A DNA stretch of 37,406 nt from a virus (IMGVR_UViG_2778261667_000012:1-37406); one strand, 5' to 3'. Shown: positions 934-37,406, counted from the stretch's first letter. Translations and numbers: made by a program. The notes: generated by a model from the letters alone, not told the origin.

Positions 934-1156
934 CTTTTGTTAACTCCTTTTTATAGATGCGGGAGGTTATTCCTCACCCCGATGCCAATTTTCAGGCATC
1001 CTGATTTAACTTAGCACCCGCAAATTAACTACAGGAAAACAAAGAGATAATTGTCTGATTCTGATGGAAATTGAGCCAATTTTTTAATCTTCACTGACTT
1101 TTATCCTGGTGATTAATTAATTTCTTGACCTTCCCCTTGCTGGGAGGATCTCAATA

Positions 1157-10694: not shown

Positions 10695-11654
10695 ATGAAA
10701 ATTTGTATCGACGACGGCTCCACCAACATCAAGCTGGCATGGACTGAGAACGGCGAACGCCGCAACGCCATCAGCCCGAACAGCTTCAAGTCGGAATGGT
10801 CTGCGCCGTTCGGTGGCACGCAGCCCGCGAACTACATGCTTGATGGCGTGCGCTATGGTTTTGATCCGGTCAGCGACCGCTTTGTCCAGACGACCGACAC
10901 GCAATACCAGTACAGCGATGTGAATGTCATTGCCATTCATCATGCGCTGGTCAAATCAGGCATCACGCCACAGGAGGTGGATGTGGTTGTCACCCTGCCA
11001 CTGAGCGAGTATTTCGACACAAACGCACAGCCGGACATGGCCAACATCAACCGCAAAAAAGCGAACGTTATGCGCCCGGTGGAGTACCAGAACGGCGAGG
11101 CATTCACTATCCGTAACGTGCGGGTTATGCCTGAATCCATTCCGGCTGGCTTTAAAGCACTGGCTGACATGAGTCCGTTTGAATCCCTGCTGATTGTGGA
11201 TTTAGGCGGAACCACGCTGGATGTGGCAAAGGTTCAGGGACAACTGGCAGGTATCAGCCAGGTGTTTTGCGATCCACACGTAGGCGTTTCCCTGATGGCC
11301 GATGCCGTGCTGTCGGTGATGGGCACTAACGGTATGCGCACCAGTCACCACATCGCCAATACCATTATCGAACATCGCCATGATGAAGCCTGGCTGCGCC
11401 AGCACATCCACAATGACGCGCATTACGACAGCCTGATGGCGGTTATTCGTGAAAAGGAAGAAACACTGAAACAACGTGTGATCCGTGCGCTGGCTGGTTT
11501 TTCCGGTTACGGGCGGGTGATGGTTGTCGGTGGAGGGGCGGAGATTGTGGCACCCGCTATCCGCGAAGCCTGCGGAGTTAATGCGACTTTCATCGCGGAC
11601 GGGGTGCCACAGTTTGCTCTGGTTAATGGGCTGTACGCAATGGATAAGGAGTAA
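10695..11654 (+). CDS. parM: Actin-like plasmid segregation ATPase ParM/StbA
   Basis: 319-aa ORF. N-terminus MKICIDDGSTNIKLAW… and motifs …QYSDVNV…, …VMPESIPAG…, …LIVDLGGTTLD…, …VMVVGGGAE… match R1 ParM closely as recalled. Confidence 0.9.
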   Translation: MKICIDDGSTNIKLAWTENGERRNAISPNSFKSEWSAPFGGTQPANYMLDGVRYGFDPVSDRFVQTTDTQYQYSDVNVIAIHHALVKSGITPQEVDVVVTLPLSEYFDTNAQPDMANINRKKANVMRPVEYQNGEAFTIRNVRVMPESIPAGFKALADMSPFESLLIVDLGGTTLDVAKVQGQLAGISQVFCDPHVGVSLMADAVLSVMGTNGMRTSHHIANTIIEHRHDEAWLRQHIHNDAHYDSLMAVIREKEETLKQRVIRALAGFSGYGRVMVVGGGAEIVAPAIREACGVNATFIADGVPQFALVNGLYAMDKE

Positions 11655-35603: not shown

Positions 35604-35945
35604 TCACCGGGCATAAAATCCACATAAACGCCCCATCACGCAACGCACGGTTCAGGCCGTGCGTTTTCATATCTGCCACCTGATTAATGCGTTCTGCGTG
35701 CCATTCCGGCGCTGTATGCGCACACCACGTAAACGGTGTGACGTAAAGCGTGAGGTGACGTAAACCGCGCTACCCCCTCCAACCCGCGGGTTTTGTGTCG
35801 AAACACTTTTTCAGTTTTCTGCCGTGCAAAAATGACCGTCAGCCCGCGCTGCGACTGAGGGAAAGGCGAGGATCTGAAATTTCACGTTTTGAAATTTTTT
35901 GCAGTTTTCAGAGAGGTTTTTACGATCGCACAAATGGTAGGAGCA

Positions 35946-36083
35946 ATGAAACCGCATGATATTAAAAGAGTTTTCATACTTTACGCGAGACGAGAAACGA
36001 TCACGAAAGGATCGCATCAAAAAATCGTCAAACAACGAAGCCTGACGCAGCACGGCCTGCGTAAAATTAAGAGTCAAAATTAA
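35946..36083 (+). CDS. Small basic hypothetical ORF (45 aa)
   Basis: AGGAG 4-5 nt upstream of the ATG at 35946; translation MKPHDIKRVFILYARRETITKGSHQKIV…; low support. Confidence 0.2.
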   Translation: MKPHDIKRVFILYARRETITKGSHQKIVKQRSLTQHGLRKIKSQN

Positions 36084-36433
36084 ACTGAAAAAAGGATCAA
36101 TACCGCGCCTCGATCACGCATGACGATCTACACAGCAACAGGGCGAAAAAAAACCGGCGCGAACGCCGGCGGAAGCATGTATCAAATGCGTGACTGAATA
36201 ATGTCTACGGTCGGGAATTTTACATCAGAAGGCTGATAAGTCTCAACGGATTGAAACAAGGGAAAAAACCAGGCTAGAATTCGCGCGGGTGCCTTTCGGC
36301 TGATGGCTGGAGGGAATACCTGAAGGCCGGATGTGGAAAGGCCCCGGAAAACATTTTCTGTTTAACCGAGGCCCTAACCGCATTACCTTCGCAAGTGATA
36401 GGTTAGCGCCTCTCCAATAAAGGAGCAAGCGCT

Positions 36434-36574
36434 ATGTCGCAAAAATCGCTTATGGCCATCACGTTCTGCGTGACGGCAATCCTCATCATCTGGATGCTGC
36501 ACGGTTCGCTGTGTGAAATACGGATGAGCTTCTGGGGAGCGGAGTTTGCGGCGTTCTTACAGTGTAAACAGTAA
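36434..36574 (+). CDS. Hok/Gef-family type I toxin (46 aa), not in the ORF track
   Basis: AAGGAG RBS. Translation MSQKSLMAITFCVTAILIIWMLHGSLCEIRMSFWGAEFAAFLQCKQ has an N-terminal TM helix, the LCEIR motif and an E(V/F)AAF C-terminal motif typical of Hok proteins. A 9-bp-stem hairpin follows at about 36586-36607. Confidence 0.55.
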   Translation: MSQKSLMAITFCVTAILIIWMLHGSLCEIRMSFWGAEFAAFLQCKQ

Positions 36575-36714
36575 GGAAACCGCGACGGGGGAGCAATCCC
36601 CCGTCAATCGGTTGCTAAGGCAAGGTCGTAAAGGCACCCTATCTCACAGGCATGTCCCCACGGCGCAAATTTTGTCTCCCTTATGAATAGGGACGACATC
36701 TGCAGTTCGTCTAC

Positions 36715-37230
36715 TTACTTAGGTTTTGCAGAAAACCACAATCCTGCCACTTGAGTAGCAATCATTGTATAACGCACTCGCTGGGTATCAAAGCGGGCCC
36801 CATTTTCATCATGATCAGCGGCAGCTTTAATCATCTTAGAAAGATGTTCGCCACGACTTTCTGCTGGAATTTCCGGTGAAAATATTTTCATCAAAACAGC
36901 CTGCAATAACAACGCCCCTAAAGCCCCGTCACCATTAGGCGATGCAAAAATAGCCGTCACATCTTTTATTTTCTTACTACCCTTATCCACAGCAACAACC
37001 AAGGCGGTCGTTTCACTTAAATTAATTTGTGCAACATCATTAACCTCACCATGTGAAATACTTACCTTTTTACTCAATTTAAACCCAAGAGCCTTAGAGG
37101 TGCTTTTTAATTCACTGTTAAGTTTTTTATTAAATTGTTCTGCTGTTAGATCAAATGTTGAAGAGGCTAAAGATAAACCTGACCAACAAATTAGAAAGAA
37201 CAAAACCACATATTTAATAACTCTACTCAT
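36715..37230 (-). CDS. Secreted/periplasmic hypothetical protein (Sec signal peptide)
   Basis: 171 aa; N-terminus [24 protein letters not shown]… is signal-peptide-like. The gene is AT-rich. Confidence 0.5.
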
Positions 37231-37406
37231 TCACTACACACCTTTTTAGAGCGGCTGATTGAGCCATCATTACAAACAAATTTTCCATCCTTAGTACAAT
37301 GTGACACCCCACCTTTACTACCAGAACATGGCTTCCGCCCACGCCCAGCATCAGCGTTCATTGACAAAACGAAACCGATACAAGCAATCACTAAAAATTT
37401 GTACAT
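37227..37406 (-). CDS. Small secreted Cys-rich peptide (59 aa); start codon at the window edge
   Basis: Translation [59 protein letters not shown]: signal peptide plus a mature region with 4 Cys. ATGA-coupled to the downstream gene. Confidence 0.35.

Follow-up and report, generated by a model that had tools for sequence, protein, structure and literature searches.

Superinfection exclusion (Sie) proteins are commonly directed to the cytoplasmic membrane's outer face; Glo exemplifies a soluble, periplasmic form (PMC3952083). Glo of the Peduoviridae member K139 is a small Sec-exported protein whose gene lies beside int and attP in a lysogenic transcription unit (cI-orf2-glo-int-attP); the K139 record annotates it as 'periplasmic protein; involved in phage exclusion'. 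Ltp of TP-J34 and Sie of lactococcal P335-type phages are Gram-positive cases, likewise encoded in lysogeny modules, expressed from the prophage and displayed at the outer face of the cytoplasmic membrane (PMC3952083). Here, these systems are compared with two overlapping genes at the right end of IMGVR_UViG_2778261667_000012:1-37406, a viral DNA stretch of 37,406 nucleotides (nt) which is referred to as the window. The first gene encodes a precursor of 59 amino acids (aa) from the YdcA family, the second a 171-aa protein, and homologues of both occupy the slot of glo in other phages.

On the bacterial side, the described relatives of these products are YdcA and, remotely, YiiQ of Escherichia coli. 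YdcA (b1419; PF27300, PRK10040) has, like the 59-aa product, a signal peptide and a mature four-cysteine domain of ~37 aa, and E. coli K-12 ydcA is convergent with hokB, which is the same ydcA/hok topology as in the window. The window protein shares ~63-67% identity with chromosomal YdcA copies; unlike these, it is phage-borne and its gene is followed by a coupled second one. Deletion of ydcA in E. coli W causes sensitivity to 300 mM 3-hydroxypropionate, and the gene has been reported to be YdcI-controlled and acid-induced (PMC7642389). The sole characterized YiiQ/DUF1454 protein, Klebsiella GM000287, is an envelope protein of the Sec/signal peptidase I route without which neither virulence nor survival in human serum is maintained (PMC13623161). 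Both ydcA and yiiQ are found in the RpoS lists obtained by genomic SELEX (systematic evolution of ligands by exponential enrichment), ydcA with an RpoS SELEX peak (PMC5493296).

The gene pair of the window is read here as prophage cargo encoding two exported envelope proteins, i.e., as lysogenic-conversion genes or 'morons', with a probability of about 0.9. The complete statement, according to which these proteins would serve superinfection exclusion or shield the envelope against incoming phages in analogy to the above systems, is tentative (about 0.4). AT-rich lysogenic-conversion genes at a prophage end beside hok/sok are already known, and in this respect the locus is an ordinary accessory cassette. 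The new points are modest and comprise the placement of the pair inside attR, the independent mobility of its two genes, the links of YdcA to lysogeny and of the 171-aa protein to YiiQ, as well as a fold for which no relative has been solved. Should the favoured reading be true, a testable function would be at hand for YdcA and YiiQ/DUF1454, both of which belong to the E. coli core genome.

A gene pair inside attR of a P2-like prophage

The pair consists of the following features, given in window positions:

37227..37406, minus strand: ydcA-like gene, 59-aa precursor (ORF call); its start codon ATG forms the final triplet of the window
36715..37230, minus strand: gene for the 171-aa protein, predicted to be exported (ORF call)
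37227..37230, minus strand: ATGA stop/start overlap of the two genes, GTGAATGAGT, 4 nt (read from the sequence)

The original prediction had described two coupled minus-strand open reading frames (ORFs) for products of 59 and 171 aa, and at these positions ORF call and ATGA overlap agree with it. The overlap is also present in the orthologues from Salmonella and from a metagenome, implying translational coupling of the two genes. As had likewise been predicted, the upstream region lies beyond the window; it was recovered from contigs L001-L008, which carry an identical 171-aa gene, and extension to the right revealed an AGGAGG motif 5 nt ahead of the ATG of the 59-aa gene (contig L001). The markedly low G+C content (GC) of the pair was equally confirmed, since its 39.2%, compared to 51.8% for the window, is the lowest among 735 sliding windows of 692 bp. 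At third codon positions, a GC of 0.29-0.35 contrasts with 0.55 in the adjacent tail gene. Orthologues are 82% (Salmonella) and 73% (metagenome) identical with preserved reading frames. The three pairwise comparisons among the E. coli, Salmonella and metagenome copies gave ratios of nonsynonymous to synonymous substitution rates (dN/dS) of 0.04-0.13 for the 59-aa gene and 0.10-0.20 for the 171-aa gene, with dS ranging from 0.5 to 2.5. Because frames and ATGA overlap have been kept at a dN/dS of 0.04-0.20, and because homologues exist at family level, both ORFs are genuine genes under purifying selection and not chance ORFs.

Signal peptides were called by eye from n-, h- and c-regions and the -3/-1 rule, supplemented by the pattern in homologues. 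In both products, the n-region is basic, the h-region that follows is hydrophobic, and cleavage is expected at a small-x-small motif (ADA before G in the 59-aa, SLA before S in the 171-aa product). By this inspection, the signal peptides assumed earlier for both products are predicted again, and four cysteines indeed lie in the mature part of the smaller one.

Apart from its left end, the window is a P2/HP1-like (Peduoviridae) prophage, comprising a Phage_GPA replication gene, portal, terminase, capsid, baseplate J, tail fibres and HP1_ORF34. Features relevant to its ends are listed below, the last of which lies on contig L001:

1-933, minus strand: glsA (ybaS), a chromosomal glutaminase gene, which is the leftmost ORF and not the integrase
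1118..1143, minus strand: core of the left attachment site (attL), CCAGCAAGGGGAAGGTCAAGAAATTA, 26 bp (empty site of strain L009 aligned with both junctions)
1202-2239: integrase gene
L001 9606-9631, ~194-219 nt past the right edge of the window: core of attR, second copy of CCAGCAAGGGGAAGGTCAAGAAATTA

In contigs L001-L008, copA lies shortly past the right edge of the window. The prophage-free strains L009, L011 and L012 have the order copA, 261 bp, glsA, and the pair is missing. The 26-bp core occurs once in the window, with a chance expectation of 0 matches, and TGTCCACA arm-type repeats flank each of its copies at the two junctions. Because the attR core is found ~195 nt past the window edge, between copA and the 59-aa gene, the pair lies inside the prophage. 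Together with the neighbouring hok/sok locus it is attR-proximal cargo, and the prophage occupies the copA promoter region of E. coli, in the interval that separates copA from glsA. The comparison with prophage-free strains, which the original prediction had named as the check, thus places the locus inside and not outside attR. As to the boundary call of the window, it extends too far on the left and stops short on the right.

Salmonella has a cassette of 82% identity (YdcA-like gene, 171-aa gene and hok) on the same tail genes, at the end of a prophage of the same type, but beside fieF-pfkA, and in the metagenome the cassette again adjoins these tail genes. The claim of horizontal acquisition stands; the pair is compositionally foreign, and the same cassette occupies a different chromosomal site in Salmonella. 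It also holds that the pair is not part of the virion structural genes.

Families of the two products

The 59-aa precursor is predicted to consist of a signal peptide of ~20 aa and a basic mature peptide of 39 aa (10 Lys/Arg versus 3 Asp/Glu) with cysteines C27, C37, C45 and C57; a fifth cysteine lies within the signal peptide. NCBIfam PRK10040 models match the protein (NF007462, E-value 3e-25, residues 1-58 over 57 profile positions), as does phrog_6000 (E-value 1e-23), and PF27300 (YdcA) is precomputed on the identical protein P0004 and on all 86 hits. A Pfam search gave no match for either the 59-aa protein or K-12 YdcA, the copy searched seemingly being one without PF27300. Scores stay below the equivalog cutoffs (88.2 versus 118 bits; 79.2 versus 93 bits). 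The 59-aa product thus belongs to the YdcA family as a paralogue and not as the YdcA orthologue. In 35 members of diverse origin (Enterobacterales through Legionella, Chromobacterium and Oceanisphaera to an alphaproteobacterium), the core PCSGSKGG[VI]SHC-x2-3 and the residues onward are nearly invariant, while the signal peptide varies freely. The window protein holds every invariant or near-invariant column of two family alignments (A4 and A5).

Relatives of YdcA are widespread in temperate phages. Using tblastn, they were detected in Haemophilus HP2 and S2, in 20 phages of Moraxella, in Vieuvirus phages of Acinetobacter and in one Pseudomonas phage. In IMG/VR, the number of contigs encoding a relative is at least 523. 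Among these contigs, the commonest context is repressor, YdcA-like gene, integrase and contig end, and a contig end lies less than 3 kb away for 50 of the best 80 relatives. HP2 shows the order cI, 60-aa YdcA-like ORF (its start overlapping the cI stop), orf1(S) and int. In a Yersinia prophage at the copA att site and in an E. coli P2-like prophage beside pgsA, the ydcA-like gene is the first one within attR; it further occurs within tail-gene clusters of Moraxella Mcat phages and E217-like prophages. Judged from these neighbourhoods, YdcA is strongly associated with lysogeny modules, which is a modest new point. In viral contigs, the genes of its relatives usually lie beside the integrase.

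Some observations on these loci may be added. The 60-aa ORF of HP2 is intact but unannotated (L013 2980-3162, corresponding to ~2486-2668 of NC_003315.1, minus strand) and is also present in S2. For the product of HP2 orf1(S), which is unrelated to the 171-aa protein, export is likewise predicted and a 'Sie-like' PHROG gives a weak match. Genes of DUF4236 type are located beside ydcA-like genes in Acinetobacter Ab11510-phi (L015 3135-3458) and in an unrelated E217-like enterobacterial prophage (L040 5219-5710), and may be a recurrent neighbour.

The best match of the YdcA profile among PDB sequences is Legionella Dis2/Lpg0823 (7MUC/7MUD; chain AN of 7MUC was compared). Dis2 is a disulfide-pinned protein of the Dot/Icm outer-membrane cap, located in the periplasm close to the outer membrane and without known fold relatives (PMC8486379). 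Both of its disulfide-pinned lobes carry the YdcA-like pattern CS-K-GG[IV]xxC...G..VCN[DN]G..S, while Dis2, unlike YdcA, has two lobes and is part of a secretion machine, the type IV system Dot/Icm. With the signal peptide included in the profile, the E-value is 3.9e-4; the mature domain alone yields 0.046, with LDL (low-density lipoprotein)-receptor repeats at 0.06. As significance becomes marginal without the signal peptide and the remaining score resembles this LDL-receptor-repeat noise, homology between YdcA and Dis2 is kept as a lead only. The idea that YdcA is a circular permutation of DUF3761 was discarded, given that the concatenated mature sequence had no such match in Pfam.

The 171-aa protein is predicted to carry a signal peptide cleaved after SLA at residue 22 (before SS) and, behind it, an alpha/beta domain of ~145 aa. 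Neither Pfam nor NCBIfam models match it, DUF1454 (PF07305) being absent even at E<=1, while phrog_23546 does with an E-value of 1e-27. Its own subfamily is small, with only 3 close clusters and 1 IMG/VR locus in a narrow alignment scan. An exhaustive HMMER search returned 71 remote relatives, and 10 of 66 remote relatives match Pfam DUF1454 at E<=0.01 (best 1e-5). In an hhalign comparison, the family profile (A2) aligned with E. coli YiiQ over 146 columns (residues 23-171) with a probability of 97.2% and an E-value of 4.1e-11. These profile matches indicate that the 171-aa protein belongs to a remote, largely phage-associated branch of YiiQ/DUF1454, with relatedness at superfamily level only. 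Like the 171-aa protein, YiiQ/DUF1454 combines a Sec signal peptide with a single ~145-aa alpha/beta domain. Identity of the window protein to YiiQ is ~21%, and the phrog_23546 branch differs in being often transmembrane (TM)- or lipobox-anchored. In relatives, the ~145-aa domain is C-terminal and preceded by a signal peptide, by a lipobox, or by a TM segment with a linker; 49 of the 66 family members possess one of these N-terminal elements, and some have cytoplasmic zinc ribbons. Serum resistance and an association with type II secretion are features of the GM000287/YiiQ side. The two products are not housekeeping proteins, by which the original prediction would have been refuted, but both have relatives in the E. 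coli chromosome, in YdcA and, remotely, in YiiQ/DUF1454.

An AlphaFold2 model of the 171-aa protein, computed from a 66-sequence alignment, reached a predicted local distance difference test (pLDDT) of 91.4 and a predicted template modelling score (pTM) of 0.82. The predicted order begins with an N-terminal helix that stands apart and continues with two short helices, a sheet of four strands, two long helices and another three strands, residues 1-19 forming a low-confidence helix separate from the domain. A search for solved structural relatives of the model returned none, and a weak fold resemblance to Rhs-type immunity domains was noted. Well-conserved columns are T29, F33, N38, G61, V63-N64-D65, K83, P119, G127, Y154, G163, F166 and P170. 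They contain no Ser, His, Cys or Glu and no recognizable catalytic motif, which suggests a binding or structural role rather than an enzyme.

Outside of this lineage, the two families go separate ways. Among ~8 independent YdcA contexts, a 171-aa partner is present in this lineage only. Conversely, members of the 171-aa family lack a YdcA gene in four contexts if K-12 yiiQ is counted: a Yersinia P2-like prophage (repressor, 170-aa homologue and int, with 7 nt between homologue and int), IMG/VR contig L123 (repressor, 213 aa, 171-aa homologue, int), and P0128, whose gene lies between two helix-turn-helix repressor genes beside an integrase. A conserved two-gene module was considered and rejected, as the genes downstream of YdcA in HP2, Moraxella Mcat13, Acinetobacter Ab11510-phi, the Yersinia prophage and the E. 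coli prophage at the pgsA site are all unrelated to the 171-aa protein by BLASTP and hhalign; most of them are also predicted not to be exported. Because each gene occurs elsewhere alone or with unrelated neighbours, the pair is treated as two independent cargo genes that happen to form one small operon. Of the secreted module proposed in the original prediction, the AT-rich, coupled and (predicted) exported character is thus upheld, but not an obligate association. Each family moves independently among temperate phages, repeatedly occupying the repressor-integrase slot or the att-proximal end.

Proposed superinfection exclusion and its alternatives

In the favoured reading, both products would be synthesized by the lysogen and reach its periplasm, with the cell envelope and not the virion as their target, causing superinfection exclusion or envelope shielding in the manner of soluble periplasmic Glo and membrane-tethered Sie/Ltp. 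The two proteins would act separately and not as a complex. Regarding expression, a block of ~30 nt upstream of the ydcA-like gene is conserved in E. coli, Salmonella, Yersinia and the metagenome, while its flanks diverge:

L001 9750-9780, ~45-75 nt past the right edge of the window: conserved block GCTATCTnnTTGAT(A/T)TAGATC(T/G)(C/T)TTTTT

By this conservation, it is probably a promoter or operator element. On one strand of the excised circle, C, int, attP, the ydcA-like gene and the 171-aa gene follow each other, so that the pair may also be read through from the lysogenic promoter at establishment. This layout resembles those of Yersinia and HP2, but with the pair on the other side of attP. 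Since integration separates the pair from the lysogenic promoter, it would need a promoter of its own in the prophage, located in the ~190 nt between attR core and start codon.

A slight preference is given to phage exclusion over tolerance of stress or serum, because homologues in the repressor-integrase slot, combined with predicted export, are characteristic of superinfection-exclusion genes. Like Ltp and Sie, many of the 171-aa protein's relatives are TM- or lipid-anchored, while the window protein has a (predicted) cleavable signal peptide and no anchor; Ltp and Sie themselves share no homology with the window proteins. Several points weigh against exclusion. Homology of the 171-aa family to K139 Glo was examined and rejected (hhalign probability 0.4%), the PADLOC defence models match neither protein, and neither has homology to a characterized exclusion or defence protein, the matching PHROGs being labelled 'unknown function'. 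In this phage, the pair is not within the repressor-int operon itself; unlike K139 glo, it lies across attP and is split from the C-int operon in the prophage. Upstream, there is a single weak sigma-70-like match (TTGACC-18-CATATT, 9/12), which overlaps or lies too close to the Shine-Dalgarno sequence, and both expression in the lysogen and export of the pair are predicted only. Furthermore, conserved members of both families reside in the chromosome (E. coli ydcA and yiiQ), arguing for a role in host physiology, and such experiments as exist for either family indicate tolerance of stress or serum and not phage exclusion (PMC13623161, PMC7642389).

These last two points lead over to the strongest competitor, a conversion that improves host fitness, in which diverged extra copies of YdcA and YiiQ would reinforce the envelope against serum and complement or against organic-acid and acid stress. 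Lambda Bor exemplifies such envelope-modifying lysogenic conversion directed at non-phage stress. The serum survival and virulence role of Klebsiella GM000287 (PMC13623161), the 3-hydroxypropionate sensitivity of the ydcA deletion and the acid induction of ydcA (PMC7642389), the RpoS genomic-SELEX entries of both host genes (PMC5493296) and the insertion of YdcA as a moron among the tail genes of Moraxella Mcat phages and E217-like prophages, a typical site of host-fitness morons, all speak for it. It suffers from the remoteness of the YiiQ relation (~21% identity, no direct Pfam match for the window protein, 97% by hhalign only), from a YdcA copy under the NCBIfam equivalog cutoffs and from the repressor-integrase placement of the homologues, which is the classic position of exclusion genes. 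Host-fitness conversion is hence a serious possibility, if a rather unlikely one.

A bolder extension of the exclusion reading would make YdcA a widespread periplasmic effector distributed by phages that docks with its near-invariant disulfide-pinned fold, maybe a single-lobe form of Dis2, to some conserved structure of the envelope near the outer membrane and constitutes, along with DUF1454-like proteins, a new class of envelope anti-phage or exclusion functions in lysogeny modules, with K-12 ydcA-hokB as the domesticated end of a P2-like prophage. We consider this improbable.

The original prediction had also called the pair bacteriocin-like. In such a scheme, a cationic four-cysteine toxin would be co-translated with a periplasmic immunity or chaperone protein. 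The small size, basic charge and four cysteines of the mature peptide agree with it, as do the tight coupling of its gene to that of a periplasmic protein, the exported-protein gene that likewise follows the YdcA-like gene in HP2, and the weak resemblance of the 171-aa model to Rhs-type immunity domains. YdcA occurs, however, without a 171-aa relative in K-12, in P2-like prophages of Yersinia and E. coli, in phages of Moraxella and Acinetobacter and in the repressor-int slot, and the 171-aa family is found without YdcA. Bacteriocins tend to diversify, while the mature peptide is near-invariant from Enterobacterales to Legionella, Chromobacterium and an alphaproteobacterium. Neither in K-12, where YdcA stands alone, nor directly between repressor and integrase genes is an immunity partner or export machinery nearby, and the neighbours of the pair in the window are copA, hok/sok and tail genes only, with no export, processing or lysis genes among them. 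The bacteriocin claim is therefore not supported, and a toxin/immunity pair is decidedly unlikely, while the other labels of the original prediction, inhibitor or virulence-associated, may still apply.

It is even less probable that both genes are hitch-hiking remnants without current function, carried along with the hok/sok addiction module. Their AT-richness, the rarity of the 171-aa subfamily and the lack of a clear promoter upstream of the pair would fit; strong purifying selection, intact signal peptides, the conserved ATGA overlap, the strong AGGAGG ribosome-binding site and an upstream block conserved in four lineages do not. Finally, there is virtually no chance that ordinary chromosomal periplasmic genes outside the prophage were included by imprecise boundary calling: although the left end of the window does contain chromosomal glsA and both proteins have relatives in the E. 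coli core genome, this explanation is already contradicted by the data in hand, namely empty sites without the pair, an att core located beyond it, the same cassette on the same tail genes at another chromosomal locus in Salmonella, and a megablast against 5,426 complete E. coli genomes without any match.

Neighbouring hok/sok locus, integration site and further observations

The remaining part of the cassette adjoins the 171-aa gene:

36275..36654, plus strand: hok/sok-type type I toxin-antitoxin locus, convergent with the pair
36434-36574, plus strand: Hok ORF, 46 aa, with Hok signature (HOK_GEF Pfam on record)
36583..36606, unstranded: G+C-rich hairpin TGACGGGGGATTGCTCCCCCGTCG, terminator-like for the pair (terminator scan, L001 10625-10648, coordinates converted)

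The hok/sok locus is part of the same att-proximal cargo cassette as the pair. It shares 91-94% nucleotide identity with 'MokW-like host killing' loci of P88-like E. coli phages, and the Rfam sok model scores 44 bits, which is below gathering. The hairpin lies between the convergent 171-aa and hok genes, 9 nt beyond the hok stop, in a stretch common to the hok loci of P88-like phages. An arrangement of ydcA-like gene, variable genes and hok recurs in four contexts, including the Yersinia and E. coli P2-like prophages and the K-12 chromosome. This recurrence suggests that E. coli K-12 ydcA-hokB is a relic of a prophage end, which would give the K-12 locus a likely origin.

With regard to the integration site, the att core overlaps the copA promoter, containing its TTGACC -35 hexamer and half of a CCTTCC-N7-GGAAGG dyad. 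This dyad in the extended copA spacer we take to be the CueR site. Binding of CueR to the spacer between -35 and -10 has been described (PMC5329002). Upon integration, the copA promoter is reconstituted at attR, while at attL a near-copy (CCTCCC...GGAAGG plus TTGACC) is directed into the prophage, antisense to int. A Yersinia prophage integrates at the same copA att site. Integration of a P2-like phage into the CueR-controlled copA promoter is thereby documented.

The last tail gene (565 aa) and the hok locus are separated by ~670 nt (35604-36274), in which no convincing ORF was found and ogr is not evident; the equivalent stretch of contig L001 contains several terminator-like hairpins. Directly after the gpA replication gene, positions 10695-11654 and the next ORF, reaching to ~11973, encode ParM/StbA-like and Plasmid_stab_B-like partition functions, and these partition genes belong to an integrating P2-like prophage.

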